64,000 bases of DNA from Escherichia coli. Its GTDB lineage: Bacteria; Pseudomonadota; Gammaproteobacteria; Enterobacterales; Enterobacteriaceae. This document shows positions 1 through 63,692 of the stretch, piece by piece (the stretch's first letter is position 1; each line of letters opens with the position of its first letter). The stretch lies in the NCBI RefSeq assembly GCF_016903815.1, contig NZ_CP069973.1. The stretch is one strand, 5' to 3'. The translations under genes and the position numbers were made by a program. The notes below the pieces were generated by a model. The model had not been told where the DNA came from, searched no databases, and saw nothing but the letters and a program-made list of their open reading frames with translations.

Positions 1-19
1 GGACTCGCAAATTCCCCTT

Positions 20-54
20 GAAAATACTCCGGTAGCGTTAGCCACCGGAGGGGG
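20..54 (-). terminator. putative intrinsic terminator downstream of hisP
   Basis: Inverted repeat ctccggt(27-33)/accggag(44-50) just 3' of the hisP stop on the minus strand, followed by a T-rich tract (tatttt) on that strand. Confidence 0.5.
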
Positions 55-56
55 AA

Positions 57-830: not shown

Positions 831-837
831 CGTATTC

Positions 838-1554
838 TCAGTGCGTTGAAGAAGGTTTCACATGCTGCAACCAGCGTTTTTCCGCTCTGCGAAAGAGGCT
901 GATCAGGACATAAGAGATGATTAAATAGAGCACCGCGGCAATGCCGAAGGCGGTAAAAGGTTGATACGTGGCGGCGTTAATATCGCGGGCTATTTTCAGC
1001 AGATCCGGCACAGTAGCGGTGAAAGCCAGCGCAGTAGAGTGCAGCATCAGGATCACTTCGTTGCTGTAGGCCGGTAACGCAATACGCAGCGCCGATGGCA
1101 AAATAATGCAGCGATACATTTTAAAGGTCGAGAAGCCATAGGCTCTGGCGGCTTCGATTTCCCCATGCGGCACTGAACGGATCGCTCCGGCAAAAATCTC
1201 GGTGGTGTAAGCACAGGTGTTAAGCGTCAGCGCCAGCACGGTACAGTTCAGGCCACTGCGAAAAAAGGCGTTAAGAAACTCGGTCCCCTTAACAATCTCC
1301 AGCGTATACATGCCGGAATAGAACACCAGCAACTGAACATACAGCGGCGTACCGCGAAAAATATAGGTAAATAACCAGATTGGAAACTGGATGTATTTAT
1401 TACTGGAGACACGACCAATCGCCAGAAACAGCGCCAGAACTCCGCCTATCACTACCGACAAAATCAGCAGCCACAGGGTGATCGCCACGCCAGTAAAGCG
1501 ATAACCGTCGGTCCACAACAACGGTTTCCAGTATTCATGTAAGATTTCGATCAC
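838..1554 (-). CDS. hisM: polar amino-acid ABC transporter permease HisM
   Basis: 238-aa multi-TM ORF with permease EAA-type loop (EAARAYGFS). Sits between hisP and hisQ and overlaps hisQ by 4 nt. Confidence 0.95.
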
Positions 1555-2237
1555 AGGTCAGCCCTCTTCACACCCACGGAGTAGCGGCGCTCAAGGACCA
1601 GCAGCACACCATTGGAAACAGTGGTGAAAACCAGGTAAATCACGCCACAGACGATGGCGAAATAGAACGGTTCCCAGGTACTTTTGCCTGCCAGCTGCGT
1701 GGCTTTGACCACATCTTCCAGGCCAAGTAACGAAACCAGAGCGGTAGATTTGAGGATCACCTGCCAGTTGTTGCCAATGCCTGGCAGGGCGTAACGCATC
1801 ATCGCCGGAAACATGATCCGCCGAAACACTTGCCCACGAGTGAAACCGAACGCCGTCGCCGCCTCTATATGTCCTTTCGGCACTGCCATAAAAGCGCCAC
1901 GGAACGTTTCGGTAAAATAAGCACCGTAGATAAAACCGAGAGTAATAATACCAGCGACCATCGGATCGATATCAATCTGCCCGACGCCCATCGCCTCCGT
2001 CACCGTGTTTAGTGCAATCTGCAAACCGTAGAAAATTAGCAGCATCAACACCAAGTCCGGCACGCCTCGAATCAGCGTGGTGTACCCTTCGAAAATCAGC
2101 CCCGAAAGCCGATTTTGCGAGAGCTTACCGCCAGCGCCAATTAAACCGATGATTACAGCGAGCACTACAGAGCTGATAGCCAGCTCCAGCGTGACGAGCG
2201 CACCCTGTAAAATAACACCTGAAAACCCATACAACAT
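1551..2237 (-). CDS. hisQ: polar amino-acid ABC transporter permease HisQ
   Basis: 228-aa multi-TM ORF with EAA-type loop (EAATAFGFT). Operon position matches hisQ. Confidence 0.95.
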   Translation of the reverse strand: MLYGFSGVILQGALVTLELAISSVVLAVIIGLIGAGGKLSQNRLSGLIFEGYTTLIRGVPDLVLMLLIFYGLQIALNTVTEAMGVGQIDIDPMVAGIITLGFIYGAYFTETFRGAFMAVPKGHIEAATAFGFTRGQVFRRIMFPAMMRYALPGIGNNWQVILKSTALVSLLGLEDVVKATQLAGKSTWEPFYFAIVCGVIYLVFTTVSNGVLLVLERRYSVGVKRADL

Positions 2238-2326
2238 GCTGCCTGTCCTGTCGTGTGTGGTGAATTACCGCCTCTTGTCTCCCTCCGGTTACCCGAAGGG
2301 AGCGGACTTTCTTTCACCGATGGCGA

Positions 2327-3109
2327 TTAACCACCATAAACATCAAAATCGAAGTACTTTTTCGCTAATTTCTCGTAAGTACCGTCAGCGCGCATTTCGG
2401 CAAAGGCTTTGTTCAGTGCCTCGCGCAGTTCGTTATCTTCTTTACGCAGGCCCATGCCGGTCCCTACGCCAAACAGTTTTTCATCTTTAACAGACGGACC
2501 ACCGAATTTGTAATCTTTACCGACGGGTTGTTTGAGGAAACCTTCGCTGGCTGCGACCTCATCCTGGAACGCGGCATCAATACGTCCGGCAGTCAGGTCA
2601 GAATAAATATTGTCCTGCCCCTGATAAGAAACGATTTCAATGCCTTTTGGTGCCCAGTGTTCGTTACCGAACGTCTCCTGGGTGGTGCCCTGCAATACGC
2701 CTACCCGTTTGCCTTTCAGCGATTCGACTGTCGGCTGAATGTCGGAATTTTTCGCCACCACCAGACGAGAATCGGCTGCGTATAGTTTGTCGGTGAATGC
2801 TATTTCTTGCTGACGTTTTTCCGTAATGGAAAGCGATGACATGATGGCGTCAATCTTCTTCGCTTTTAAGGACGGGATTAACGCATCCAGTGGGTTTTCG
2901 ACAAACGTACATTGCGTATTGATGCGTTTGCACAACTCCTTTGCCAGATCGATATCGAAGCCAACCAGTTCACCTTGTGAATTTTTTGATTCAAATGGCG
3001 CATAGGTCGGATCGGTACCGATGCGGATGTTTTGCGGAATCGCAGCAAACGCCACAGTTGCGCTGGAGAAGGCCAGAACCAGAGAGAGCGATAGCACCAG
3101 TTTTTTCAT
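2327..3109 (-). CDS. hisJ: periplasmic histidine-binding protein HisJ
   Basis: 260 aa with signal peptide [22 protein letters not shown]. Family-3 periplasmic binding protein, a clear paralog of the adjacent argT product. Confidence 0.95.
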
Positions 3110-3329
3110 AATGTCCTCAACTGACAGTCTTTTTATAGGGAATATTTACAGGTTTGTTACACTTATCGTGCCATAAAATTGACCATCAAGGCAAAATATC
3201 CCGCCCCGTTAGACGTATTATTTTTCATTAAAAATGCTTAAGTATGCATTTCAATGCACCACGATAGTGCAACAAACCTGCCGTGCACCATGATGATCAT
3301 TCCATCAGGTACAGCTTCCCTGCGACGTA

Positions 3330-4112
3330 TCAGTCACCGTAGACATTAAAGTCAAAATACTTTTTCGCCATCTTGTCGTAGGTGCCGTCCTGACGCAGCT
3401 CGCCAAGCGCCTTATTAAACGCCGCCGTCAGTTCCGCATCATCTTTACGTAGCCCTACACCGGTGCCGTCACCGAAGTATTTTTTGTCTTTCACTGATGA
3501 GCCAGCAAAGGCGAAGTCTTTACCAGCAGGTTGCTTGAGGAATCCTTCGCTGGCAGCAACTTCATCTTGTAACGCAGCATCCAGACGTCCTGCAGCCAGA
3601 TCGGAATAGACCAAATCCTGGTTGGCATAGGCCACCACATCCACACCTTTGCTACGCCAGGTCTCGTTAGCGTAAGCTTCCTGGGTTGATCCCTGCAGCA
3701 CACCAACATGTTTACCTTTCAGTGAATCCAGCGTTGGCTGAATCGGCGAACCTTTGGCGGCAATCAAACGAGAATCTGCGGCGTACAGCTTGTCGGAGAA
3801 AGCAATCTCCTGCTGACGTTTATCGGTAATGGAAAGCGACGAAATAATGGCGTCGATTTTTTTCGCTTTCAGTGAGGGGATCAGCGCGTCAAAGTCACTG
3901 GCAACCCAGGTACATTTCACCTGCATCCGTTTGCACATCTCGTTACCGAGATCGATATCAAAGCCAACAAAGTCACCTTTGGCATCTTTCGATGAGAACG
4001 GCGCATAGGTGGTATCAGTTCCGATACGTACCGTCTCCGGTAGCGCCGCATAGCTGGAAGCCGCTGCGGAGAGACCGACTAACAAAGACAGAGCGAGAAT
4101 CGACTTCTTCAT
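3330..4112 (-). CDS. argT: periplasmic lysine/arginine/ornithine-binding protein ArgT
   Basis: 260 aa with signal peptide [22 protein letters not shown]. Paralog of HisJ, in the position upstream of hisJQMP. Confidence 0.95.
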
Positions 4113-4180
4113 ACATAACCCTCAAGTGAAAATGGCTTTTTTATGTTGTGTATTGTGTTGTGTGTTTGCAGGCTCTTTCA

Positions 4181-4196
4181 TGCAGGTCTTATGCCA
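4181..4196 (-). promoter_or_regulatory. sigma54 (-24/-12) promoter of argT
   Basis: The minus strand reads TGGCATAAGACCTGCA, which has the GG-N10-GC spacing of the TGGCAC-N5-TTGCA consensus. It lies about 70 nt upstream of the argT ATG. argT is a known Ntr-regulated gene. Confidence 0.65.
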
Positions 4197-4377
4197 TCTT
4201 TACGACAGCAGTAACATTCAACGTTAAACATGTTAATAAGACGTTGCATTATTGTCCTGAAGTTGAAGATAGCAGGTATGGCGGTTGAATCGCAGCGTTT
4301 CGATTCATCGAAAGGAACAAAATGTCGAGGATTTGATCGCGGTTGCAAAATTGCCCTGAAACAGGGCAACAGCGGAG

Positions 4378-4947
4378 TTATGCGCCCTGCCAGCGGGCAA
4401 AGAGATCTTCAGGAAGCGTTATGGCGAATTGATCGAGTACACGGTTAACCGTCTGATTTATCACATCATCAAGGGATTGCGGGCGATGATAAAACGCCGG
4501 AACGGGAGGCATAATCACCGCACCGATTTCTGCTGCCTGAGTCATTAAACGCAGATGGCCTAAGTGCAATGGTGTTTCACGTACGCAGAGCACCAACGGG
4601 CGACGCTCTTTCAGCACCACATCTGCCGCACGGGTCAGTAAGCCATCAGTATAGCTATGGACAATGCCGGACAGGGTTTTGATTGAACAGGGTAAAATCA
4701 CCATCCCCAGTGTCTGGAAAGAACCGGAAGAAATGCTGGCAGCAATATCGCGCGCATCGTGCGTCACATCGGCTGATGCCTGCACTTCGCGCAGGGAAAA
4801 ATCCGTTTCGAGGGATAAGGTCTGGCGCGCGGCCTGGCTCATCACCAAATGCGTTTCAACATCTGCGACATCGCGCAGAACCTGTAATAAGCGCACGCCA
4901 TAAATCGCGCCGCTGGCACCGCTGATGCCTACAATGAGTCGTTTCAT
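4378..4947 (-). CDS. ubiX: flavin prenyltransferase UbiX
   Basis: 189-aa ORF with N-terminal flavoprotein fold motif GISGASGAIYG. Synteny next to purF. Confidence 0.95.
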   Translation of the reverse strand: MKRLIVGISGASGAIYGVRLLQVLRDVADVETHLVMSQAARQTLSLETDFSLREVQASADVTHDARDIAASISSGSFQTLGMVILPCSIKTLSGIVHSYTDGLLTRAADVVLKERRPLVLCVRETPLHLGHLRLMTQAAEIGAVIMPPVPAFYHRPQSLDDVINQTVNRVLDQFAITLPEDLFARWQGA

Positions 4948-5041
4948 AAATAGTTGCCCTGTCAGACTTGCAGGCAGACTTTGCAGGATTTCGGCGGGAG
5001 TTGCAAGTCAGGGTGCCAGACCGGCACCCTGAGCGAAGGCA

Positions 5042-6559
5042 TCATCCTTCGTTATGCATTTCGAGATTTTCCACTTCGTTCTGACGTTGCACTGCTTTGG
5101 CGTCATCATTACGTAACGTATCGAGGAAATCGAGGTAGCCCTGATCAACATCTTTGGTGACGTAGACGCCGTTGAACACCGAACACTCAAACTGCTGAAT
5201 ATCCGGGTTTTCAGCGCGAACGGCTTCGATCAGATCGTTCAGATCCTGGAAAATCAACCCGTCAGCACCGATGATCTGGCGAATTTCATCTACTTCGCGA
5301 CCGTGAGCGATAAGCTCCGTAGCGCTCGGCATATCGATACCGTAAACGTTCGGGAAGCGAATCTCCGGTGCCGCAGAAGCGAGGTACACTTTCTTCGCTC
5401 CGGCTTCGCGTGCCATCTCGATAATCTGCTCAGAAGTGGTGCCACGGACGATGGAGTCGTCGACCAGCAGGACGTTTTTATCGCGGAACTCGGCGCGGTT
5501 GGCGTTCAGCTTACGGCGCACGGACTTACGACGCAGTTGCTGACCCGGCATGATGAAGGTACGGCCTACATAGCGGTTTTTAACGAAGCCCTGACGGTAC
5601 GGTTTGCCCAGAATACGAGCAATTTCCAGCGCGATATCACATGAGGTTTCCGGGATCGGGATCACCACGTCGATATCCAGATCTTCCCATTCGCGGGCAA
5701 TTTTCTCGCCCAGCTTCGTGCCCATATTCACACGCGCGCTGTAAACGGAAATTTTGTCGATGAACGAGTCCGGGCGAGCAAAGTATACATACTCAAACAG
5801 GCACGGATTGCTGACCGGATTGTCAGCACATTGACGGGTAAACAACTGCCCTTCTTCAGTGATGTAAATCGCTTCGCCCGGCGCGACGTCACGCAGGAAA
5901 TCAAAGCCTAGTGTATCGAGCGCAACGCTTTCGGAAGCGACCATATATTCTGTGCGGTTCTCGTCAATATCACGTTTTCCCAGTACCAGCGGACGAATAC
6001 CGTTAGGATCGCGGAAAGCAACCATACCGTGGCCGATAATCATCGCCACACAGGCATACGCGCCGCGGATTAAGCGGTTTGTGGCAGCAATGGCAGCGAA
6101 AATATTGTCGGCTTCCAGCGGGTAGTGGCGGAAGTTGTCCAGCTCGCTGGCGAAGATATTAAGCAGAATCTCCGAGTCGGAAGTGGTATTGATGTGGCGG
6201 CGTTTTTCTTCAAACAGTTTTTTACGCAACTCGTGAGCGTTGGTCAGATTGCCGTTGTGGGCAAGCGTAATGCCATACGGAGAGTTAACGTAAAACGGCT
6301 GCGCTTCAGAGGCGCTGGAGCTGCCAGCCGTAGGGTAACGCACATGACCAATGCCCATATTGCCCTGCAAACGCTGCATATGGCGAGCTTCAAATACATC
6401 GCTCACCAGCCCGTTCGCTTTACGCAAACGGAAGCAGTTATTGGCATCTATGGTGATGATGCCGGCGGCATCCTGACCGCGATGCTGAAGCACCGTTAAG
6501 GCATCATAAATCGACTGGTTAACCGGCATAACACCGGCGATACCGACAATACCGCACAT
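5042..6559 (-). CDS. purF: amidophosphoribosyltransferase PurF
   Basis: 505 aa starting MCGIVG (Ntn Cys nucleophile), with PRTase motif [13 protein letters not shown]. Confidence 0.97.
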
Positions 6560-23762: not shown

Positions 23763-24695
23763 TTAATCTTTATAAATCGCGAAATGTTCACGGGCCGCCA
23801 GCAGCTGCTCTTTGGTGAGCATAAACACACCATCGCCGCCGTTATCAAACTCCAGCCAGGTGAACGGAACATCCGGATATTGTTCCATAAGATGTACCAT
23901 GCTGTTGCCCACTTCACAAATCAGCACGCCATCATCAGCGAGGTAATCTGCCGCGTTTCCGAGAATGCGACGCGTCAGTTTCAGGCCGTCGGTGCCAGAT
24001 GCTAGGCCCAGTTCCGGCTCGTGACGGTATTCGTTTGGCAGGTCGGACATATCTTCCGCATCGACATACGGCGGGTTAGTGACAATCAGGTCGTACTGCA
24101 CTTTCGGTAAATCACGGAACAGATCAGAGCGAATCGGAATGACGTTGTGGATCAGACCGTGTTCTTCGATGTTCTGTTCAGCAACCGCCAGCGCGTCGGG
24201 AGAGATATCCACCGCGTCAACTTCCGCATCCGGGAAGGCATAAGCACAGGCAATGGCGATGCAGCCGCTACCGGTACACATATCTAAAATATGCTGCGGT
24301 TGCTTGCTGATAAGTCCGGCAAATTTATTGTTGATCAATTCACCAATCGGCGAGCGCGGCACCAGCACACGTTCATCGACGTAAAATTCATGACCGCAGA
24401 ACCACGCTTTGTTAGTCAGGTAAGCCACCGGAATGCGTTCATTGACGCGGCGGATCACGCGCTCAACAATACGGTGTTTTTCGCTGGAGGTCAGACGCGC
24501 GGTGCGCATATCTTCCGGGATATCCAGCGGCAGGTAGAGTGAAGGCAACACCAGTTGCACGGCTTCATCCCACGGGTTGTCAGTGCCGTGGCCGTACCAG
24601 ATATTCGCCGCGCTGAAGCGGCTCACCGACCAGCGCAACATGTCCTGAATGGTTTGCAGCTCATTTACTGCTTCATCAACGAAAATTTTATCCAC
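23763..24695 (-). CDS. prmB: ribosomal protein uL3 Gln N5-methyltransferase PrmB
   Basis: The frame is open to 25028, but the GTG at 24695 follows a GGAGG Shine-Dalgarno sequence (24701-24705, minus strand) and gives (M)DKIFVDEAV, 310 aa. SAM motif [10 protein letters not shown] and NPPY motif VTNPPYV are present. Confidence 0.93.
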
Positions 24696-31930: not shown

Positions 31931-32540
31931 TATTTGTCCTTAAATCATAAATAATTAGAATATAAGCCAACTGAAATATTGACGTAGAGCTTCTTCAATT
32001 TTTACAGCGACTTTTAAGCAGCCAATGAACAGATTTTCAGCTCCTGAAAAAACAGGTTCCTTGATATAATATTCTTTGGCGTGCCGAACATGTTGATATT
32101 TTAATATGACTGATGCAATTTAAATTTTCTAACATTCAAAGTTAGAAATACTTAATTAATGGACGGGGATAATAATTACTGAAATTTTTCATCTCAGTTA
32201 TGAAGAATGAGTTCAAAAAAACGGCAAATGCAAAAACTCAGTGAATAAATCAAAGTCAAAAACAATCACATGGCAATGACTATCTTGTGATATTAATTTC
32301 GCAACGATATAATATTAAAACACTATAATTAATATAAAATCAAGACCCAATAATATTTTTCACTTTAGTCATTATTTACCTAAAAATGCTTCCAGAAAAA
32401 TAATTTATGAATAAAAGTAAATTCTCTTTCAATATGTAAATTTTTACAAATAAAAGCGTCATGCCGTATAAAATAAAGACCATTCGATCACAAGCGGATC
32501 ATTGTTAGTACAATAAGATTGCATAAATTCAACATTGCCA

Positions 32541-32580
32541 GAAAAAAATAAAGGCCCGATAGATTACACCAGCGGGCCTT
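32541..32580 (-). terminator. intrinsic terminator of sixA
   Basis: aaggcccg(32551-32558)/cgggcctt(32573-32580) just after the sixA stop, followed on the minus strand by a T7 run (plus-strand A-run at 32542-32548). Confidence 0.8.
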
Positions 32581-42759: not shown

Positions 42760-42834
42760 GTCCTCTTAGTTAAATGGATATAACGAGCCCCTCCTAAGGG
42801 CTAATTGCAGGTTCGATTCCTGCAGGGGACACCA
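42760..42834 (+). tRNA. argW: tRNA-Arg (anticodon CCU)
   Basis: 75 nt. Acceptor stem GTCCTCT pairs with AGGGGAC. The anticodon loop is ctCCTaa. T-arm is GCAGG-TTCGATT-CCTGC. The 3' end is an encoded ACCA. Confidence 0.95.
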
Positions 42835-42995
42835 TTTATCAGTTCGCTCCCATCCGTACCAGTCCGCAAAATCCCCTAAATATCAAGCCTTCCGTAGATT
42901 AACAGTTCGTCATGGTTCGCGTCAGATCGTTGACAGCCGCACTCCATGACGGGTAAAAAGTGGATAAAATAATTTTACCCACCGGATTTTTACCC

Positions 42996-44153
42996 ATGCT
43001 CACCGTTAAGCAGATTGAAGCAGCAAAGCCGAAAGAAAAACCATACCGCCTACTCGATGGTAATGGCCTGTACCTTTATGTCCCTGTGTCAGGGAAAAAG
43101 GTATGGCAGCTTCGCTACAAGATTGACGGTAAGGAGAAAATCCTGACTGTCGGAAAATATCCGCTTATGACTTTGCAGGAGGCAAGGGATAAGGCATGGA
43201 CTGCGAGGAAAGACATCTCGGTTGGCATCGATCCGGTAAAAGCGAAAAAGGCTTCGTCTAACAACAATTCCTTTAGTGTGATTTACAAGGAATGGTATGA
43301 GCACAAGAAGCAAGTCTGGTCAGTAGGCTATGCAACTGAACTTGCAAAAATGTTTGATGACGACATTTTACCTATCATCGGCGGCCTTGAAATTCAGGAT
43401 ATTGAGCCTATGCAACTGCTGGAAGTAATCCGCAGGTTTGAAGATCGCGGTGCAATGGAGCGAGCCAACAAAGCACGCAGAAGGTGCGGCGAGGTTTTCC
43501 GTTACGCTATTGTCACCGGCAGGGCTAAATATAACCCGGCACCTGACCTTGCTGACGCCATGAAGGGATACCGCAAGAAGAACTTCCCGTTTCTTCCAGC
43601 AGACCAGATCCCGGCATTCAACAAAGCACTTGCAACATTTTCAGGAAGTATCGTATCGCTCATTGCGACCAAAGTTTTACGCTACACAGCCCTAAGAACG
43701 AAAGAGCTTCGTTCCATGCAATGGAAGAACGTCGATTTTGAAAACAGGATTATCACCATCGACGCCAATGTGATGAAGGGACGCAAAATTCATGTGGTCC
43801 CGATGTCAGACCAGGTGGTTGAACTTCTCACTACGCTAAGCTCAATCACCAAACCAGTCTCAGAGTTTGTTTTTGCCGGGCGCAACGATAAGAAGAAGCC
43901 AATCTGCGAGAACGCGGTATTGCTTGTGATCAAACAAATCGGCTATGAAGGTCTGGAAAGCGGTCACGGATTCAGGCATGAATTCAGCACAATTATGAAC
44001 GAGCACGAATGGCCTGCTGACGCTATTGAAGTGCAGCTGGCACATGCCAACGGCGGATCTGTGCGCGGTATTTACAACCATGCTCAGTATCTCGATAAGC
44101 GCAGAGAAATGATGCAGTGGTGGGCGGACTGGCTTGATGAAAAGGTGGAGTGA
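42996..44153 (+). CDS. intS: prophage tyrosine integrase (IntS-like)
   Basis: The ATG at 42996 gives MLTVKQIEAAKPKEKPYRLLDGNGLYLYV (385 aa), essentially the K-12 CPS-53 IntS as recalled. Catalytic motifs RYTALRTKELRS, HGFRHEF and RGIYNHAQY are present. Confidence 0.93.
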   Translation: MLTVKQIEAAKPKEKPYRLLDGNGLYLYVPVSGKKVWQLRYKIDGKEKILTVGKYPLMTLQEARDKAWTARKDISVGIDPVKAKKASSNNNSFSVIYKEWYEHKKQVWSVGYATELAKMFDDDILPIIGGLEIQDIEPMQLLEVIRRFEDRGAMERANKARRRCGEVFRYAIVTGRAKYNPAPDLADAMKGYRKKNFPFLPADQIPAFNKALATFSGSIVSLIATKVLRYTALRTKELRSMQWKNVDFENRIITIDANVMKGRKIHVVPMSDQVVELLTTLSSITKPVSEFVFAGRNDKKKPICENAVLLVIKQIGYEGLESGHGFRHEFSTIMNEHEWPADAIEVQLAHANGGSVRGIYNHAQYLDKRREMMQWWADWLDEKVE

Positions 44154-44269: not shown

Positions 44270-44926
44270 TTATGAACTATAATAAGTCCTAATCTTTACA
44301 GATGAAAGCATAATCTTCCAAGCTTGATCGCTACCCAACCACTCATCGTTGGTTGGTTCATTATCACCAGATACTACATAAGTATCTGGCATATCAAAGT
44401 CTATATTGCAAAGGTCTTCTCCTTTGCGCTCCTTAAAAATAAGAAGATCTATTTTTGTTGTTGGGAATTTTTTATCCAAAACACTTCTCAGTTTATACAC
44501 AGCATCTCGTTCTGCATTCAATCTAACGAGTAAAACACGTTCCGACTCATTGATTTTCTCTATAAATCTTTTTCTTCTCGCCTTTATTTTTTTCATCATA
44601 TTAAACAAGCAGACTTCAATACCTTGTTTTTCATAGTCATCAATAAGAATATCGTGAATACTTCGAAATCCAGTCGCTGTATCTGTGATATCAATACAAT
44701 TTTTAAATCTGCCATTAATTTTTATATTTTCAGGCAAGAAAAGGTGGTCGCACCCCTTATTAATTATTTTTGTAACTTGAGGTAGTTTTTGAGAGGCAAA
44801 CCAATCAAATGGTCCACTAAATGTCCTCAACCCAAATCGCTTTAACCTTCCTGCTGGTTGACATTTTTTACCAAGGCTTGCTATAAAATCATACTCTCCA
44901 CAAGGAAGAAAAAGGCCTTTATTCAT
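44270..44926 (-). CDS. moron gene 1: cytoplasmic DUF1796-like (putative papain-fold) protein, function unknown
   Basis: The ATG at 44926 follows AAGGA and gives MNKGLFLPCGEYDFIASLGKKCQPAGRLKRFGLRTFSGPFDWF (218 aa). The SLGxxC...GLRxxSxPFDW pattern is what I recall for Pfam DUF1796. No signal peptide. About 33% G+C. Confidence 0.6.
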   Translation of the reverse strand: MNKGLFLPCGEYDFIASLGKKCQPAGRLKRFGLRTFSGPFDWFASQKLPQVTKIINKGCDHLFLPENIKINGRFKNCIDITDTATGFRSIHDILIDDYEKQGIEVCLFNMMKKIKARRKRFIEKINESERVLLVRLNAERDAVYKLRSVLDKKFPTTKIDLLIFKERKGEDLCNIDFDMPDTYVVSGDNEPTNDEWLGSDQAWKIMLSSVKIRTYYSS

Positions 44927-45043
44927 ATGATTTTCCTTACATTTTATGACGACAAAAATCATAACATTGCCTTATTAATCAGTCAAACAGTTAACAAATG
45001 CAAACAAACAAGTAAGCACATTGTTGATAATTTGTTTATTTTT

Positions 45044-45658
45044 ATGTTTTTGTTATCTATACCATTTTTTTCATTTGCTTCTGATACAAACAAAACGCCA
45101 CCATATCGCATGAGGGAGTCGATGTTTGAGTTATTAAAGGAGCAAAGGGATATTGTTATGCTTGGCGATAGCATAACCGCGCGAGGAGAGTGGAATGAGC
45201 TTCTTCCTAGTTTATCTGTAGCAAATAGGGGCATTGGGGGAGATGAAGTTAAATTTATGAAAAGAAGGATTGATTCTATATTTTTATTAAAGCCCAAATA
45301 TGTATTCATTATGGGCGGAACAAATGATTTCAGAAGAAAAAGAAGTGTTGATGATGTGGTTCGTGACTATAAGCATATAATAAAAAAACTACACAAACAC
45401 AGAATTAATGTATTCATTCAGTCCACCCTTTACGTGTCAAGAGAAAGCAGGTTAAATGACAACATAAAAATATTAAAATTAAACAATGCAATAAATAACT
45501 ATTGCTCTGTATCTAATTATTGTCGTTTCGTAGATCTTAACGTGCACATGGCAAAAGATAGAAAAATACTAGCTAAGTATAGCGATGATGGAGTCCATCT
45601 AAATGGTAATGGGTATTTAATGTGGGCGTCAATCATATACCCTTTAATTAAAAAATAA
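45044..45658 (+). CDS. moron gene 2: exported SGNH/GDSL-family hydrolase (esterase/acyl-transfer fold)
   Basis: All four SGNH blocks are present: I MLGDSITARGEW, II NRGIGGD, III GGTNDF, V DDGVHLNGNGY. The N-terminal hydrophobic segment (NL)FIFMFLLSIPFFSFA|SD is a signal peptide or signal anchor. The start is ambiguous: ATG at 45044, or ATG at 44927, which adds 39 aa. Confidence 0.75.
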   Translation: MFLLSIPFFSFASDTNKTPPYRMRESMFELLKEQRDIVMLGDSITARGEWNELLPSLSVANRGIGGDEVKFMKRRIDSIFLLKPKYVFIMGGTNDFRRKRSVDDVVRDYKHIIKKLHKHRINVFIQSTLYVSRESRLNDNIKILKLNNAINNYCSVSNYCRFVDLNVHMAKDRKILAKYSDDGVHLNGNGYLMWASIIYPLIKK

Positions 45659-45777: not shown

Positions 45778-48177
45778 TTATTTTAGTATCCATCCGGTAT
45801 TTCCTGTTCCTGTTTTTTTTTGATACCAATCACCATTATAATCAATGTACATTGACCCCTGAGGTGCGGTCACAACACCCTCAGGTGAACCGGAGCCTCT
45901 ATAAATTCCAAAGAGAGTTGTACCTCTTACTTTCTCGTATGCAAACAACAAACCATCTGAAGCCCTTCTGATACGCAACGGTTCGTGCTCTGAGTCCGAT
46001 GCAAATGTAGTGGTGCCGTTTGAATCTGTTTCCCTGGAAAAACTTCCATCTGTTCTTGTTCCTTCAATGATCGAATTTGGGTAGTTTGGATCATCAGATG
46101 AATGTAACCTAATATAGGAACTATTTGATGCTGATACCCCCCTACCCCTTAAAATCAATCCCTTAAATGATGACGTAAATAGTGCCTGGATTGAGCCATA
46201 AACAGTGTTATCACTACCGTTTTGCTGATCGTATATTCTTAGTCTTGAGCTATTATCATACATAATAGCGTTGAAGTACTCACCAAGACGTTCGCTAAAT
46301 GCAACAATATTAAAAGCATTGCGCCATCTAAATGATATATTTCGCCCGCTTTCTCCGGCATCTACACCTGCATTACTTGAAGCATTGGTTATGCCAGAAT
46401 TAAGGTTCTGCTCATCGTTGTTACCAGTCGCTGGTCGTATAGAGTAAATTGTCTTTTTCTCAAGAGAATAGCTACTTCCCCATCCATAATCTGTATCAGG
46501 ACTCCAGTCTCCAGAATTTGCATCCTTGGTTGTTTCCACCCAATAAGAGCCATTTGATGGAGGAACACCAATTATTCCAGAAGTCTCAATAGATGATGCA
46601 GCCCATCTTCTTCCACGCCAGTTTACAATATTAGCTCCTGCCCTCCATGTTTCTATGCAGCTTATAATTATTTCTTCGCCACGAATAGTTAAACCTTCCG
46701 GCTCGAATCTGGCTGGATTCCCAAGAGTTGGATGGTTAAGCAACCCATCGCGCCCATATTGCGACCTTGCATCATCGATATCTAATTTTCTTAGTAAATT
46801 ACCTGTTAAATCATATGTAAAGATATGATGCTTTCCAAAAGCATTAGTGCCTCCCTTAAGTATATGTATATATCTTCCATCAGACGCAATACCTTGTACA
46901 GAGTAAGCGCCTTCAGAAGGTGAGTCGCTCATTTCCCAAACAAACATGGGGTTTGCTAATGTTTTATCTTCAAGTTTATCAATTGATATTTTATCGTATA
47001 TAAATACAGTTCGTTTAGCGGCATCACTCTTTGGTGTATTAACCATTATTAAAAGACGACCGTCAGAAGAAATGGCAATTCCTGCACGATTGTAATCTTG
47101 AAATGGGTGACCGCTACCAGTAATCCCCCATACATTATAACTTTTTACGTCAGACTGAGTTGTTCCTGCCCCTCGCCAAGTTATTTTACTAAACCCTTTG
47201 CCTGCAGACTCCCCATCTTCACCTGAATTGGTTACACTTGATGTATATAAATATACTTGACCATTCTCCACCATGGCAGAAAGATCAAATCCGTGCCCAA
47301 GGTTTAATTCTGGAGAATACGCAACATGGTTTACTACCCTTCCATCATCATAAAGATTAAACTCAACAATACGAACTCTTTCTTTATCCGACCAGGTTGG
47401 CCCAACAGGCCGTTGTGTGACAAATAGTTTTTCAATGCCATTAACACGGCAATATGCGATCCCCTGTAACGCATTTCTGGCATTAGGATAAATTTCTGTG
47501 TTTGTTTCTCCCTGAAAACCAAAAAAAGGTTCCATCATTTTTCTCTGCGCAAGTTTGTCAGTTTCAAGTAGACGAGAAACGGAAATAAGAGAGCCATTAT
47601 CTGCAACAATCCTCCCAATACCTCGAGCAGAAGATACATCAACTTCGAGAGTATTTACTGCAAAATCGCCATCAGGAACAAACATTCTATAGCCTGCGTT
47701 AGAGAATGCCTCAGTAGCGTCAGTTATTCCATCACTGATAGCCCCCCAACCGCGAACATCTTTGTCATCACGCCATCGTGCAATCTGCAATTCGGGATAT
47801 TTTTTAGCACCATCCGGGTCTTCTAACTGCTGCCGTAGCTGATCCGGGTCATACTTCAGCACATTAGGGAAATAGAACTGCTGAGTGCCATATGCATCAT
47901 ATACAGCCATAGAATGGCCTTGAACAGTTACGAATTTGGCAATCTGCCCGTTATATACCGGATATCCAGCAGCGTTAATGATGATTGGCTGCGAAACAGG
48001 AACATGAGAGCCGTCTTCGTTCTCTACATAAACCTGAATCTGGTTTTCTGGACTTACCGGGTCAGTGTCAATTTTTCCGATATAAATTTTGCCGTTGGCT
48101 ACTGCTTTAAAAGAACGCGCCATAGTGAAGAGTTGCGAAGGCATACTCACTACAACATTGGCTGTAATGTCTGTCAT
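45778..48177 (-). CDS. tailspike: P22 gp9-type N-terminal head-binding domain fused to an unrecognised receptor-binding/depolymerase part
   Basis: 799 aa. aa 1-113 ([40 protein letters not shown]...NVLKYDPDQ) match the P22/HK620/Sf6 head-binding domain as recalled. The remainder is AT-rich and not recognisable to me. Confidence 0.9.
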
Positions 48178-52431: not shown

Positions 52432-52887
52432 CTATCTCCCGTGATTCAGGAAGTCGATTAGTTCTTCGCGTGTTGCGCTGTAAAACGTCACGTCATCCAC
52501 GCCTTTGAAGTATTTCTTGATGGTTCCTACACGATTAAGGCCAATCATTGCGCAGTACATCTGACCGTGGCGGAATTTGCGTGCAGCGAACGATGTGACG
52601 CACTGAACGGTGGTGTTAGTCAGAATGTATCGCCAGAACGCCAGCCCGATTTCCTTGCTGAAGCCTCGAATCTCTGGCAGGTACATGGCGTGGCAATCGA
52701 ATGTAAGCGGCTGAATCTCCTGATAGTAAACAATGCCGCCGAACTGCCCGTGCACGTTCACCTCAAAGTAACGGCAATCAGGTTTGTAGTCGTATCCATC
52801 ACCGTTGTTGCTCCCGGCGATAATGTCAGGGTGATTTCCTACTGCTTCTATCAGGTCGATGTTTCGCGTTGGTTTGAATGTAATCAT
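52432..52887 (-). CDS. gp14-like ejection-protein assembly factor
   Basis: 151-aa ORF between the needle gene and the gp7-like gene, the P22 gene 14 position. Confidence 0.7.
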   Translation of the reverse strand: MITFKPTRNIDLIEAVGNHPDIIAGSNNGDGYDYKPDCRYFEVNVHGQFGGIVYYQEIQPLTFDCHAMYLPEIRGFSKEIGLAFWRYILTNTTVQCVTSFAARKFRHGQMYCAMIGLNRVGTIKKYFKGVDDVTFYSATREELIDFLNHGR

Positions 52888-53588
52888 CAGTCAATCAGCC
52901 CATGTAATCTAAGTGCTGTTTCAAGCGCCAGAATACGCTGCCGCGCCTGCTCCAAACCTGTAGCGATAGCTGCGACTTCGGATTGTGTGTACGTAGTGCC
53001 GACCGTGTATGACTGGTTAGCGTTGAATGAGCCAAGAAGTGGTGTGCCTGTGGCCGCCGTCCATCCGGTCTGCCTTGCTCCAACGACCTGAATTCCATCA
53101 ACTGAATATGATGTTTTTACATCCAGCGGTGACGCAAGAGACTGCGATTCTGTTACGGTTTTCGATACGTAATCACTCTTAATGCCAGAGACATCGTTTT
53201 CTACGTCATCCAGTCTTTGGTCAACAGTGACCAGATGCGCCTGAATATCGATAACCTCATCCAGCAAGTAATCAACATCGCTACGCAGTACGACTATCTT
53301 CCCTTCGGCAGTTGTTAACCTGACCTCAAGTAGATTTATCGCTTTTGTGTTTGCGGTGATTCTTGCGTCGTGATCAGCCAGTTCGACGTCCTGTTCATCG
53401 TTTTTTACCTGAGCATCGTAAGCGCCCTGACCAGCCTGATTTGCCTTCCCGGCAATTGCGCCAACATCAGCACCCTGATTTATGACATACAGCAGGTAAG
53501 ACTGGCTGAATATATTGCGTGGAAGGATTGATGTATCGAGCCGCGTCGCCTGCACAATAACAGGGGTGTTGAGATTCGAATCAGCCAT
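52887..53588 (-). CDS. tail needle (P22 gp26-like)
   Basis: 233 aa. N-terminus [36 protein letters not shown] and C-terminus ...[13 protein letters not shown] closely resemble P22 gp26 as recalled, with a coiled-coil middle. Confidence 0.9.
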
Positions 53589-53969
53589 TACTCAATCCTC
53601 TGCCTTGCAAACTCTCCAAAATTTTCTGCTCTTGCCATCATTGATGCTGAGATAGCTTCGTCCAGGTCATCGAAGCATCCAACGTGAACCTGTTTTTTAT
53701 TTTTCTTGAAAGAAACAGTCCACTTGCAGAGATTTTTGTGCCAACAGACACCAGGATATCCTGACTTATTATTTCTTTGAATATTCCTGTTCATCCCATT
53801 CTGGGATCTATTTGCCAATCTTAAATTTGAAAATCTGTTATCCGTTCTGTCTCCGTTAATATGATCTATTAAGCAATTTGCAGGTTTTCCTGTCATATAA
53901 AACCAAGCAAGCCTATGCGCTAAGTATCTCTTACCACAGACCATTATCCTTAAATAACCAGTGCACATG

Positions 53970-53974
53970 GTTCC
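53970..53974. repeat. IS2 target-site duplication, copy 1 (GTTCC)
   Basis: gttcc immediately abuts the IS2 end at 53975 and is identical to 55306-55310. Confidence 0.9.
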
Positions 53975-53985
53975 TGGATTTGCCC

Positions 53986-54891
53986 CTATATTTCCAGACA
54001 TCTGTTATCACTTAACCCATTACAAGCCCGCTGCCGCAGATATTCCCGTGGCGAGCGATAACCCAGCGCACTATGCGGATGCCATTCGTTATAATGCTCG
54101 AACGCCTCTGCAAGGTTCTTTGCTGCCGTTAACCCGTCTGGTTTGGGCATGATACTGATGTAGTCACGCTTTATCGTTTTCACGAAGCTCTCTGCTATTC
54201 CGTTACTCTCCGGACTCCGCACCGCCGTGTTCTTCGGTTCAAGTCCCAACATCCGGGCGAACTGGCGTGTTTCATTAGCCCGGTAGCATGAACCATTATC
54301 CGTCAGCCACTCCACTGGAGACGACGGAAGATCGTTGCCGAAGCGGCGTTCCACCGCTCCCAGCATGACGTCCTGTACTGTTTCACTGTTGAAGCCGCCG
54401 GTAGTGACCGCCCAGTGCAGTGCCTCACGATCACAGCAGTCCAGCGCGAACGTGACACGCAGTCTCTCTCCGTTATCACAGCAGAACTCGAACCCGTCAG
54501 AGCACCATCGCTGATTGCTTTCTTTCACGGCCACTCTGCCTGTATGTGCCCGTTTCGATGGCGGTACAGCAGGTTTTCGCTCAAGCAACAGCGCATTCTG
54601 GCGCATGATCCGGTAAACACGTTTGGCATTGATCGCAGGCATACCATCAAGTTCTGCCTGTCTGCGAAGCAGCGCCCATACCCGACGATAACCATACGTG
54701 GGCAGCTCTCCGATAACATGGTGTATACGGAGAAGCACATCCGTATCATCAGTGTGACGACTGCGGCGGCCATCCATCCAGTCATCGGTTCGTCTGAGAA
54801 TGACGTGCAACTGCGCACGCGACACCCGGAGACAACGGCTGACTAAGCTTACTCCCCATCCCCGGGCAATAAGGGCGCGTGCGCTATCCAC
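53986..54891 (-). CDS. insD: IS2 transposase OrfB (InsD), DDE domain
   Basis: 301 aa, (GTG)[23 protein letters not shown]...; matches IS2 InsD as recalled. Confidence 0.95.
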
Positions 54892-55214
54892 TTTTTTGCC
54901 CGTCCATATTCAACGGCTTCTTTGAGGAGTTCATTTTCCATCGTTTTCTTGCCGAGCAGGCGCTGGAGTTCTTTAATCTGCTTCATGGCAGCAGCAAGTT
55001 CAGAGGCAGGAACAACCTGTTCTCCGGCGGCGACAGCAGTAAGACTTCCTTCCTGGTATTGCTTACGCCAGAGAAATAACTGGCTGGCTGCTACACCATG
55101 TTGCCGGGCAACGAGGGAGACCGTCATCCCCGGTTCAAAGCTCTGCTGAACAATTGCGATCTTTTCCTGTGTGGTACGCCGTCTGCGTTTCTCCGGCCCT
55201 AAGACATCAATCAT
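54849..55214 (-). CDS. insC: IS2 OrfA (InsC), HTH protein
   Basis: The ATG at 55214 gives [26 protein letters not shown]... (121 aa); matches IS2 InsC as recalled. Confidence 0.95.
54891..54897 (-). other. IS2 programmed -1 frameshift site (A AAA AAG)
   Basis: The minus strand reads GCA AAA AAG TGG in the insC frame. The GTG of insD begins at the final G. This is the typical IS3-family OrfAB fusion signal. Confidence 0.8.
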
Positions 55215-55305
55215 CTGTTCTCCAATGACTAGTCTAAAAACTAGTATTAAGACTATCACTTATTTAAGTGATATTGGTTGTCTGGAGATTCAGGGGGCCA
55301 GTCTA

Positions 55306-55310
55306 GTTCC
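55306..55310. repeat. IS2 target-site duplication, copy 2 (GTTCC)
   Basis: gttcc immediately after the IS2 end at 55305 and identical to 53970-53974. Confidence 0.9.
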
Positions 55311-55420
55311 CGCTTCATCACCAACGGTGACGCTCGCTGTATTTGATATTTTTCGGGTAAAAACCCCGGTTTCTGGGTCATATGATAAATGACGCTTCAA
55401 CTCTTCATGTGAAATCATTA

Positions 55421-56839
55421 TTACTCCAGCCTAATAGAGCAGCCTGAGAGAGTGACAGGTGATTTAGTGATAACGCGCAATTTGAAGCCGACATTTTTCC
55501 TGATGTGCCCGACTCGCTTCCACAAAACACGTTTGTCATAAACGAACGGTTCATTCTGCTCAATCATCTGCTCACGCCCGTAATTGATGCCGTCAGTGGT
55601 TGCAGAGAGGAACAGGCGGTCGGCGTACTGAGCTACGCCAGTGGATGATTCCACCTCCAGATCGAAGCATCTGGCGTTATCCGCTTTGAACAGTGGAGTA
55701 AACAGCAGGTGTTCCTGTTGAAGCCCATACTGACTGCTGATATCGAACTGCAATTTCCCGGTCACCGATTCCAGCTTATCGCCGCACGTTATCTGATTTC
55801 CTTCGTAAATGAAGTCGATAGCGCGGTACACATCGTCATACAAGCCTGTTTTCAGTACACACCATTGCGGACCATTGGCGCTTGAAGATGCGTCGTACAC
55901 GAGAACATGGCGAGGAAGGTGGATAATCAGCAACTCATGAGCATCAAACCGCAGAGATTCCATCACACCATCAGCCAGTTCATCAGCAGTGTAGGAGCGG
56001 AGGATTTTCTCAATGCTCGCGCTGGCAATTGGTGACACCTGACCGGAGCCGATGATATACACAGACGGCGCACCCGTTGCCGGATTGCTGATGAACGCAT
56101 ACGAATCAGCAAACGGCGTTTTGCAGTAAGTCCCGGCGATGCCTTTTTGCACCATCAGTGATGGCTGTGCGACATACAAAGCAGCACCAACGGTGGTTGC
56201 GCCAGTCAGGGAGAAATATTCAATAGTCGATGAACCAAAGCAGACGATGAAGTCTCGCCATGTCCCGATACCGATGATGCCGTCCGGCTGAGACTCGGCA
56301 CGATATTGTGCGCTGTAACGGTCAGGATGCGATTCGTCTTCAAGGTCAGTGATGAACCATGAATCAGTACCATCTTTTGACCACGCATAACGCCCACGTA
56401 AGCGAGTAATGTCGCGGACTGAGCCTAACTCATACTGCGTGAATCCGCTGTCTGTAGGCCAGTTTGAGACGGTTTTAACCGTGCCATCATAGCGATACTC
56501 GACCAGTTGACCATTAACGCCTACTGCCTGTGATGTCCTACCATGCGCCATTGATACGCGACCACTTCCGGCAACATCACCGACCTCGCTTTCGCCTTTG
56601 TACAGCTTGCCACCACACACGCGATAAACAGCATTCTGCGCCATGTTGTACTCGACGCCACGCGATACGCCGTTCACATCAGAACGTTTGGCAATGCCCG
56701 GGAATGAGCGAAGATATCCGCTGCTGTTAAGGATTTCTTTTGGTGTAGCCAACATATTCACTGGCAGATAGTCGATATAGTCGGCGTTTCGGAAGTCTTT
56801 GCCGACACCTTTCATAAGCGGAAGTTGCTGAATCGGCAT
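55421..56839 (-). CDS. tail hub protein (P22 gp10-like)
   Basis: 472 aa, the same length as P22 gp10 as recalled. Position is between the gp4-like gene and the needle gene. Confidence 0.85.
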   Translation of the reverse strand: MPIQQLPLMKGVGKDFRNADYIDYLPVNMLATPKEILNSSGYLRSFPGIAKRSDVNGVSRGVEYNMAQNAVYRVCGGKLYKGESEVGDVAGSGRVSMAHGRTSQAVGVNGQLVEYRYDGTVKTVSNWPTDSGFTQYELGSVRDITRLRGRYAWSKDGTDSWFITDLEDESHPDRYSAQYRAESQPDGIIGIGTWRDFIVCFGSSTIEYFSLTGATTVGAALYVAQPSLMVQKGIAGTYCKTPFADSYAFISNPATGAPSVYIIGSGQVSPIASASIEKILRSYTADELADGVMESLRFDAHELLIIHLPRHVLVYDASSSANGPQWCVLKTGLYDDVYRAIDFIYEGNQITCGDKLESVTGKLQFDISSQYGLQQEHLLFTPLFKADNARCFDLEVESSTGVAQYADRLFLSATTDGINYGREQMIEQNEPFVYDKRVLWKRVGHIRKNVGFKLRVITKSPVTLSGCSIRLE

Positions 56840-61842: not shown

Positions 61843-63255
61843 TTACCAACCGGAGGATGAGGGAACGTATATTTCTGTTTCTTCGCGGACCAATGCCGGG
61901 CAATGCATACACATCATCAGCGCATCAGCCAGGTTAGGAGATGGGATACCGAGCTTCTGCTTCATTTCGACCTTAGTCATAAGCTCCAGCTTCCCGTTGT
62001 TATTGAATTTGCGCTGAATCTGCGTAAGTTCTGCAAACAGCTTCTCCAGCATCTTCTCGCCTATCGCTTCTTTGTCGAAACTCAGCATGTCGTCGGGGTC
62101 TGCATACTCACCATGGACAACCGCCCGATATGTCAGATACAGCCTGTCAGCCAGCGCGTAATAGAATTGCGCTCGCTTATTGCGGAACACATCGCCAATA
62201 GTGCGAACGTTGTCGCCCTGTACGACTTCATCAGCCCATGCTCCGGCCTGATACGGAGCATCTTCATCGAATGGCGATTCGCTGCCCTTGAACATCGTGG
62301 CGGTGATTTTCTTGCCGGAGAACGCTTCCGTTGTCTGTCTGCGTAGCCCAGCACCAACACCATCACCATCCCACAGGTAGTGGTCAGCGCCGTCTTCAAT
62401 CGCCAGCGAAGTAGCCCAGTCAGCACCCTCGTTGATGTCCATCAGCAGACCTTCGGCAATGCGCTTAACTACAGAACCGTGACGCGATGCATAACCTTTA
62501 GCATCTGGCCCTGTATCTGACGGGTCATGCGCAGAGACAACAGCGCCTTTCGCTTTCCATCCGAGTTTCTTGTGCGCATCGGTTGCGGCTTCAAGCCATT
62601 CACGTTTGATGATTGCCATATCACTTGCGCTTACTGGCTCACCCAGCCAGATGTGACGATACAGTGTCGGGTTTCTGCGTTTACACTCTTCCATCTCCAG
62701 ACGGAGAACTTCAGGAAAGTGCGGGTTGTCGGTGTAGTTCACCGTCAGCAGACAAATATCATCAGGAGGATTTACGACGAATCGCTGATAGGTATCGTCG
62801 AGGATGTTCTTCGGGTTAAAGCTCACCCATATTTCAGAGAACGGCTTACGGATGGTTGGAATCAGGATATCCCATGATTCCTTCGTTACCGCTTCCGCTT
62901 CTTCCACCCAGCAGATATCAATGCCTTCGAGCGATTTAATCTTCGTCGGGTTGTTTTTTATGCCGTAGAACATGAATTCAGCATTCGTTCCGAAATGACG
63001 AATCATTGAACGCTGAATTTCAAACTCAGCCGAATACCCTTCACGCTCGATGGTATCTTCAAGCAACCGGATTACCGAATCGCTGATACTGTTTTGCAGT
63101 TCACGAGCGCAGAGAATACGCACAGGCTGCCGACGCGCCGCTTCAACAAGCAGCCTCGCAATTGCCCATGACTTACCGCTACCTCGACCGCCTTTGGCGA
63201 CTTTGTAGCGATGCGCCTCAATGAACGGTTCAAAGATAGGATTAATCGAGGTCAT
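61843..63255 (-). CDS. terminase large subunit
   Basis: 470 aa with Walker A KGGRGSGKSW near the N-terminus and a nuclease-type C-terminal half. Overlaps terS by 4 nt. Confidence 0.9.
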   Translation of the reverse strand: MTSINPIFEPFIEAHRYKVAKGGRGSGKSWAIARLLVEAARRQPVRILCARELQNSISDSVIRLLEDTIEREGYSAEFEIQRSMIRHFGTNAEFMFYGIKNNPTKIKSLEGIDICWVEEAEAVTKESWDILIPTIRKPFSEIWVSFNPKNILDDTYQRFVVNPPDDICLLTVNYTDNPHFPEVLRLEMEECKRRNPTLYRHIWLGEPVSASDMAIIKREWLEAATDAHKKLGWKAKGAVVSAHDPSDTGPDAKGYASRHGSVVKRIAEGLLMDINEGADWATSLAIEDGADHYLWDGDGVGAGLRRQTTEAFSGKKITATMFKGSESPFDEDAPYQAGAWADEVVQGDNVRTIGDVFRNKRAQFYYALADRLYLTYRAVVHGEYADPDDMLSFDKEAIGEKMLEKLFAELTQIQRKFNNNGKLELMTKVEMKQKLGIPSPNLADALMMCMHCPALVREETEIYVPSSSGW

Positions 63256-63692
63256 TTTCCGAATAGAGTGCTCATCGGTGATGTTTCAATCTGGATTGCG
63301 CCGCCGTCTTTGCCTGTTAGCTCGTGATCAACCTTATCGCGCCATTTATCCTTCTGTCGGTTCTTAAGCCAGAAGATGGCGGCGGTTGTATCAGGCGGGT
63401 AATACTTCTCAAGCGGAGTTTCGACAATTCTGTTTTCAATAACACGAATATCGATGTCTGGAGCCACGAAGCCCATAGCGCGTTGATAAAGACGATCACT
63501 AACTTCTGCATCAGCGACGGCCTTACCCTTTTTTATGGACTCTAAAAACTCCGGATATTCCAATTTCCAATTGTTGATTGTTGCCTCGCTAACTTCAAAG
63601 AAGTCCGCGAGTTCGGCGTCTGTATAGCCCAGCAAGCACAGTTTGCGTGCCTGTTCGGCATACGCCTCTTGATACTTCGTTGGGCGCGCCAT
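63252..63692 (-). CDS. terminase small subunit
   Basis: 146 aa with an N-terminal HTH-like segment (YTDAELADFFEVSEATINNWK). Immediately upstream of terL with an overlapping stop/start. Confidence 0.8.
   Translation of the reverse strand: MARPTKYQEAYAEQARKLCLLGYTDAELADFFEVSEATINNWKLEYPEFLESIKKGKAVADAEVSDRLYQRAMGFVAPDIDIRVIENRIVETPLEKYYPPDTTAAIFWLKNRQKDKWRDKVDHELTGKDGGAIQIETSPMSTLFGK

Follow-up and report, generated by a model that had tools for sequence, protein, structure and literature searches.

What is the open reading frame (ORF) that lies in two pieces between gp10 and gp26 of a prophage in Escherichia coli (contig NZ_CP069973.1, assembly GCF_016903815.1), and how did it come to be there? 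A first-pass annotation of a 64,000-nt stretch of this contig (the window, to which all positions refer unless another record is named) proposed two successive invasions of the tail-gene cluster, the first by a homing-endonuclease gene with HNH and AP2 domains and the second by the insertion sequence IS2. Both nested insertions stand up to closer analysis, and the locus probably comprises two nested selfish elements, i.e. a homing-type HNH-AP2 cassette that was later split by IS2. The setting is the late operon of a P22-like (Lederbergvirus-type) E. coli prophage, in which the cassette, IS2, gp10 and gp26 are all encoded on the minus strand. The coordinates were checked by a minus-strand reading of 53400-55600, by the ORF listing and by a script. 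The relevant features, in the direction of transcription, are as follows:

55421-56839, minus strand: gp10, head-closure / DNA-stabilisation protein, 472 aa (Pfam Phage_stabilise, 8e-299; PHROG_578 'head closure Hc3')
55306-55418, minus strand: 5' part of the HNH-AP2 gene (codons 1-37 and 2 nt more), identical to the intact genes and ending in one GGAAC copy (5 nt, 55310-55306) of the IS2 target duplication
53975-55305, minus strand: IS2, 1331 bp, with its left terminal repeat (IRL) at 55305-55264, right terminal repeat (IRR) at 53975-54015, orfA at 55214-54849 and orfB at 54891-53986
53970-53974, minus strand: second copy of the target duplication, 5 bp, GGAAC on the coding strand (from the sequence reading and the script)
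53588-53969, minus strand: 3' part of the HNH-AP2 gene, from codon 38 through the stop, with HNH_3 at aa 53-97 (D73, H74, N86, N95) and an AP2-like region at aa 107-153
52887-53588, minus strand: gp26, tail needle, 233 aa (PHROG_1219 'tail needle protein', 2e-113)

The ATG at 55418 had been described as opening a frame right after the gp10 stop, cut after 113 nt and resuming beyond IS2 to end at 53588, and every one of these coordinates holds. The first fragment occupies 113 nt (55418-55306) and is followed by the left end of IS2; joined to 53969-53588, it gives 495 nt in a single frame, coding for 164 aa. Over its whole 495 nt the restored ORF agrees at 100% identity with the intact genes of phage record ON470594.1 and of 6 E. 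coli genomes; for 7 further genomes the identity is at least 99.6%.

The intervening element was read as exactly 1331 bp with a perfect GTTCC duplication, and both statements were confirmed to the base: GGAAC (GTTCC on the plus strand) flanks IS2 at 55310-55306 and 53974-53970. The left end at 55305 reads TAGACTGGCC... (also written out as TAGACTGGCCCCC...) and the other end, at 53975, reads TGGATTTGCC..., the element running to ...GGGGCAAATCCA. These ends start with TAGAC and TGGATT, in agreement with the published terminal repeats of IS2 (IRL 5'-TAG...TTAA, IRR 5'-TGGATT...TTAA; PMC3299598). The IS2 ORFs match Pfam HTH_Tnp_1 (2e-19), rve (1e-18; DDE) and rve_3 (2e-18), and an A6G -1 frameshift window (AAAAAAG) at 54897-54891 joins orfA and orfB. 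The IRL lies on the gp10 side, which makes the transposase codirectional with the phage late operon. In comparison with IS2 of the IS3 family, the length, the ends, the orfA/orfB arrangement with A6G, the rve domain and the 5-bp duplication are the same and no difference was detected; the element is an ordinary IS2 copy at a new site, and the window has no other.

IS2 is multicopy in E. coli. Repeats can mislead assemblers, and the split might be ascribed to an assembly artefact, or to recombination between two IS2 copies instead of simple transposition. We regard either explanation as highly improbable, given the perfect 5-bp duplication of a single-copy sequence, the full-length ends, the collinearity of both flanks with the IS2-free prophage and the presence of the same split in two separately deposited complete genomes. 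Furthermore, GGAAC is present once in the intact HNH genes, and since the restored ORF matches these genes elsewhere, the pre-insertion sequence exists. One of the two genomes is E. coli strain 2779 (NZ_CP103521.1), to which the window is identical over 8387 bases; there RefSeq labels the element 'IS3-like element IS2 family transposase, programmed frameshift', without a pseudogene flag.

What does the restored gene encode? The protein matches Pfam HNH_3 well above the cut-off (58.7 bits versus 24.8, aa 53-97), and PHROG_99 'HNH endonuclease' matches it end to end (4e-70). The Pfam AP2 threshold was missed by the restored protein (23.3 bits versus a cut-off of 33.3, E = 8e-5, aa 107-153); many of its homologues have a precomputed AP2 match. 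A family profile built from 45 homologues matches the AP2 domains of WRI1 (5e-8) and TEM1 (9e-4), as well as the N-terminal and HNH region of the homing endonuclease I-HmuI (PDB 1u3e, 4e-6). In the latter comparison D73-H74, N86 and N95 align with D74-H75, N87 and N96 of I-HmuI; all 45 homologues have D73, H74 and N86, and at least 90% of them have N95. In the I-HmuI structure (1u3e) the Asp-His pair is reportedly catalytic and the Asn residue metal-binding. The AlphaFold model of the restored protein (predicted local distance difference test score, pLDDT, 92.3) shows three strands (112-115, 120-127, 130-137) and a helix (140-158) in the AP2 region, and its top Foldseek matches in the PDB are almost all AP2 domains, e.g. 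TEM1 (root-mean-square deviation, rmsd, 2.2 Å over 56 columns) and AtERF1 (1.5 Å over 48 columns). Because of the profile match to solved AP2 domains and the predicted fold, the HNH-plus-AP2 identity of the putative nuclease is supported despite the sub-threshold AP2 score. The proposal that removal of IS2 and one repeat restores a 164-codon HNH plus AP2-like gene is therefore sustained, with the qualification that only the HNH_3 half passes the Pfam cut-off on the single sequence, whereas the AP2 half falls below it and is backed by the family profile and the fold.

Is this ORF a phage gene proper or an insertion? The first-pass annotation had taken the adjacency of genes 10 and 26 in P22 as its reference; the phages compared here instead of P22 itself bear the adjacency out, as gp10 and gp26 abut in HK620, CUS-3, Sf6, IME10 and others, and also in several hundred E. 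coli prophages. A query joining the gp10 end to the gp26 start was covered to at least 80% in 665 E. coli records; among the matches listed, nearly all are contiguous, with a span of ~895-897 nt, and the cassette-bearing ones span 1392-1394 nt. The intact HNH gene was found in 13 of 5426 complete E. coli genomes and the IS2-split version in 2 (strains 2779 and 5283, both Houston isolates). The cassette is present in ~2% of the E. coli P22-like prophages (15/681 records), i.e. it represents a presence/absence polymorphism at one site. The related prophages could have revealed a conserved structural gene, but this did not materialise: gp10 and gp26 are adjacent in most of them and the intact HNH gene is present in some. 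The HNH-AP2 gene is an accessory cassette and not a conserved structural gene.

The gene is nevertheless tightly embedded in the operon. The 3' end of gp10 reads CTG GAG TAA and the HNH ATG at 55418 begins 2 nt past this stop, while the HNH stop TAA (53590-53588) overlaps the gp26 ATG (53588-53586) as TAATG. A promoter and terminator scan of 53300-55700 yielded nothing above the shuffled expectation and nothing on the coding strand, and no sign in that region of an outward promoter created by IS2 or of a promoter borne by the cassette. The HNH-AP2 gene is presumably expressed from the late transcript, because its ATG follows the gp10 stop by 2 nt, its stop overlaps the gp26 ATG and it has no evident promoter of its own. 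Such translational embedding between two essential genes would also suit a conserved functional phage gene, e.g. a packaging-associated HNH protein or a tail component, and a distant relative that has a 78%-identical copy in the same position (see below) indicates that the gene can persist. We give this reading hardly any credence, as the gene is missing from ~98% of the related E. coli prophages and from HK620, CUS-3, Sf6 and IME10, does not adjoin the terminase genes, and its IS2-disrupted prophage is otherwise identical to the intact ones.

Where exactly does the cassette begin and end? It had been placed between gp10 and gp26, and the location at this junction is correct; it is, however, not simply intergenic, but lies within the gp10 3' end and brings a replacement end with it. 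Its two edges are:

55421-55438, minus strand: left edge, the recoded last six codons of gp10, TCTATTAGGCTGGAGTAA (S-I-R-L-E-stop), delimited by alignment and found only in the 15 cassette-bearing genomes among 681 records
53585-53599, minus strand: right edge, AGGATTGAGTAATGG, the original gp10 3' end (R-I-E-stop), now the HNH C-terminus, with the TAATG overlap with gp26 kept

At the position of the left edge empty sites read CAGATAAGGATCGAGTAA (Q-I-R-I-E-stop). The sequence of the right edge is identical to the empty site of HK620 and one base off CUS-3, E4 and MS21. The layout of an empty site is ...GGCTGC CAGATAAGGATCGAG TAATGG..., where gp10 (...CQIRIE-stop) overlaps the gp26 ATG, and that of a cassette site is ...GGCTGC TCTATTAGGCTGGAG TAATA ATG...[HNH]...GCAAGGCAG AGGATTGAG TAATGG.... 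As the alignment of the two layouts identifies the last HNH codons as the original gp10 end, the cassette sits inside the gp10 3' end, supplying a substitute end for gp10 and reusing the original one as its own C-terminus. It carries ~512 bp of its own sequence, for a net gain of 497 bp, and is enclosed by an imperfect direct repeat, 13-16 nt long, of the gp10 end (AGGCTGGAGTAAT ... AGGATTGAGTAAT). Among the 681 records that match this part of gp10, the recoded end occurs in exactly the 15 cassette-bearing genomes and never without the cassette, the rest reaching at most 87% on a 46-nt probe.

As a separate observation, at least three sharply distinct sequence types (MADSNLNTP..., MVDSSLNDP..., MADSNLNV/EP...) exist for the N-terminus of the needle gene (53586-53560, within the first ~40 nt of gp26); the switch between them falls right behind the start codon, immediately at the edge of the cassette.

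The cassette and its surroundings have different histories. All intact copies examined encode WP_021529423.1, and their host prophages differ in gp4, capsid and needle types. In seven loci that bear the cassette its mean identity is 99.8%, compared with 93-95% for gp10 and ~84% for the first 100 nt of gp26; backgrounds that share a cassette of at least 99.6% identity have flanking genes 5-16% different, and the cassette is ~25x less diverged than its flanks. The sharp edges are repeated in 11 contigs of IMG/VR, and identical edges were found in at least 18 loci. In the copy of one viral genome (IMGVR_UViG_2547132415_000014, ~2555-2560 of the locus) 1 nt is missing from the GGGGTTTTT run (codons 18-20), which would put the gene out of frame and points either to a second decayed copy or to a sequencing error.

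A more distant copy of the HNH-AP2 gene, 78% identical, lies at the same junction of a metagenomic P22-like phage (ENA ERZ1755718 NODE_352, 1011-3765), whose gp10 protein is 71% identical and whose needle protein has 276 aa. The architecture matches as well: gp10 ends in ...CSIRVE-stop, followed by 2 nt and the ATG, and the HNH gene ends in ...KRIE-stop within TAATGG. Since this 78%-identical copy occupies the same junction in a phage with a 71%-identical gp10, the association of the gene with the gp10/gp26 junction is old, and the near-identical E. coli copies represent a recent spread. Database searches revealed 4952 relatives of the HNH-AP2 protein at E <= 1e-5, many with both domains; apart from the near-identical cluster, the nearest have identities of 78% and 75%, and the next of at most 54%. 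Homologues with ~50% identity adjoin capsid genes in unrelated podophages, and the wider family occurs in 1059 phage records, mostly labelled HNH or homing endonuclease. A scan of species-representative genomes returned only distant (39-40%) relatives in other genera, and the close family appears to be confined to enterobacterial P22-like phages.

The same junction is also used by a different HNH gene of 181 aa (NUMOD4 + HNH_3 + a weak helix-turn-helix match), found in phage HZ41 (OM022251.1, 2020-2565 of the locus). This gene is at least 98.9% identical in 16 complete E. coli genomes, where it lies between gp10 and the needle gene (2001-2546 of the locus in E. coli A39). In HZ41 ~270 nt of gp10 3' sequence beside the NUMOD4-HNH gene are strongly diverged, which looks like a long co-converted tract. 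The gp10/gp26 junction is a hot spot for two unrelated HNH genes; our literature searches for an HNH gene between P22 genes 10 and 26 retrieved no description of one.

How would the cassette have spread? From its family membership and the population pattern we infer endonuclease-driven homing. In a cell that holds, besides the cassette-bearing phage, a related cassette-free phage or prophage, the HNH-AP2 enzyme would nick or cut the intact gp10/gp26 junction of the latter, and repair off the cassette-bearing copy would copy the cassette in. The cassette allele would be immune, its junction being split and its gp10 end recoded, which is what one would expect if the intact junction were the target of the enzyme. 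Later IS2 transposed by the copy-out/paste-in route into codons 37/38, duplicating GGAAC, and the nuclease, most likely inactivated by IS2, would correspond to the degeneration stage in the life cycle of a homing element.

Several observations weigh against homing as the vehicle. In the E. coli loci and in the 11 viral contigs the flanking differences start within ~10 nt of either cassette edge, and co-conversion tracts, the usual footprint of homing, are essentially absent beyond the 18-nt recoded gp10 end. Ordinary recombination at the cassette borders could likewise produce the pattern, and the 78%-identical copy next to a 71%-identical gp10 shows long vertical residence as well as spread. 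It is conceivable, if unlikely, that the gene is a passive accessory gene (a 'moron') moved by homologous recombination in conserved flanks, its own nuclease being irrelevant. The missing co-conversion tracts would agree with such passive transfer, and so would the mosaicism of P22-like genomes in this region, where the types of gp4, capsid and needle around the same cassette vary. It accounts poorly for a cassette ~25x less diverged than its flanks with identical edges in at least 18 loci, for the conserved catalytic residues in the architecture of a known homing-endonuclease family, for the second, unrelated HNH gene at the same junction, and for the recoded gp10 end, which was never found apart from the cassette.

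Or perhaps the cassette moves by a route more precise than break-repair homing, e.g. nick-primed copying resolved in short repeats, and serves, together with the NUMOD4-HNH gene, mainly as a weapon that sets the boundary of head-completion/needle recombination between competing P22-like phages? We propose such a cassette-like route on account of the almost complete lack of co-conversion and the imperfect 13-16-nt direct repeat, and rate it as a speculative outside chance. Homing remains the reading that we prefer.

The combination of an N-terminal HNH with an AP2 domain at the C-terminus has been described, in the part of Barth et al. 2023 (PMC10448857) that cites Magnani et al. 2004, as a homing-endonuclease family of phages, cyanobacteria and protists. 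The phage HNH-AP2 or 'IPA-HNH' genes of Barth et al. share with the present gene the domain order, the small free-standing format between essential structural genes and the patchy presence among close relatives; unlike the ICP1 genes treated there, the gene described here matches the canonical Pfam HNH_3. The closest homologues of its product, a predicted nuclease, that occur in other phage types are only 45-54% identical to it. With I-HmuI of Bacillus phage SPO1 it shares the profile match over the N-terminal and HNH regions and the aligned D-H, N and N positions, but I-HmuI is an intron-encoded nicking enzyme with helical C-terminal DNA-binding modules, whereas the present gene is free-standing and has AP2. 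The seg and mob genes of T4 (e.g. SegG, SegE) are likewise intergenic selfish nucleases, inherited by cutting the allele that lacks the gene, and mark the limits of genetic exchange among related phages. The seg genes belong, however, to another nuclease family (GIY-YIG), and the T4 cases show measurable co-conversion of the flanks, which is not evident here.

When did IS2 arrive, and with what consequences? The restored window differs from the IS2-free ON470594.1 at 2 of 12,495 positions, with 3 mismatches over the full ~19.7 kb overlap, and five IS2-free genomes and the two with IS2 share the 10,974 nt between the integrase and the IS2 site at 100.0% identity. The arrival of IS2 is very recent, since the insertion occurs in two genomes only and these 10,974 nt are 100.0% identical to the IS2-free prophages; the perfect duplication, the full-length ends and the unbroken transposase frames agree with this. 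The earlier suggestion of a recent IS2 event is in this way corroborated.

The insertion takes away residues 1-38, including the conserved Y13, P15, T17, G18, F20, G33, A36 and G37, and with them the two N-terminal strands of the model (11-14, 19-22). Because these residues are separated from the HNH and AP2 domains, the predicted nuclease has most likely been inactivated by IS2. What remains in frame is a hybrid:

53588-54001, minus strand: 137-aa ORF composed of 9 codons from the IRR of IS2 (starting 27 nt inside the element) and HNH codons 37-164, the conserved first 36 residues being absent

The N-terminus of this ORF had been recognised as read from the IS2 end, and its first 9 codons are indeed IS2 sequence. 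IS2 may in addition reduce the expression of the downstream needle, ejection and tailspike genes by polarity. Q-type antitermination might suppress such an effect in a late operon. The idea that IS2 pushed the genome past the headful limit was dropped, as the prophage proper has ~38 kb and an additional 1.3 kb should fit a P22-type headful. The 43,142 bp of ON470594.1 overstate the size of the phage, being a predicted prophage region (bioRxiv 10.1101/2022.06.29.498070) that includes the bacterial csc sucrose genes.

Both elements are of well-known kinds, the landing of an IS in a prophage gene is routine, and the current understanding is unchanged. The locus is of modest interest for the strict linkage of the recoded gp10 end to the cassette, the near-absence of co-conversion and the competition of two unrelated HNH genes for one junction. 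The empty site, the intact cassette in many backgrounds, the rival HNH gene at the same site and the IS-killed copy form a natural series, which could serve as a simple test system for homing in temperate P22-like phages; homing in temperate phages is far less studied than in T4-like phages.

The practical value lies mostly in the correction of annotations. In RefSeq the 137-aa IS2/HNH hybrid figures as an intact 'HNH endonuclease' (WP_204638456.1; locus tag M5S63_RS07535 in NZ_CP103521.1), and in ON470594.1 (vB_EcoP-683R2, with the csc genes within 1-5273) the intact HNH-AP2 gene (32056-32550) is labelled 'endolysin' in GenBank. The gene that ON470594.1 does call 'HNH homing endonuclease', upstream of the large terminase (23782-24222; 63252-63692 in the window), was rejected as a candidate, since it gave only a weak match to Pfam Terminase_5 and none to HNH; it probably codes for the small subunit of the terminase.

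Elsewhere in the window a tRNA-Arg(CCT) gene (42760-42834) is followed by the integrase of the prophage (42960-44153), and between the latter and the tailspike gene (45778-48177) lie the minus-strand gene of a putative DUF1796 peptidase (44270-44962) and the plus-strand gene of a GDSL-type esterase (44858-45658). The integrase adjoins the tailspike end and the excisionase is found at the opposite end of the prophage in ON470594.1, which is an unusual arrangement.

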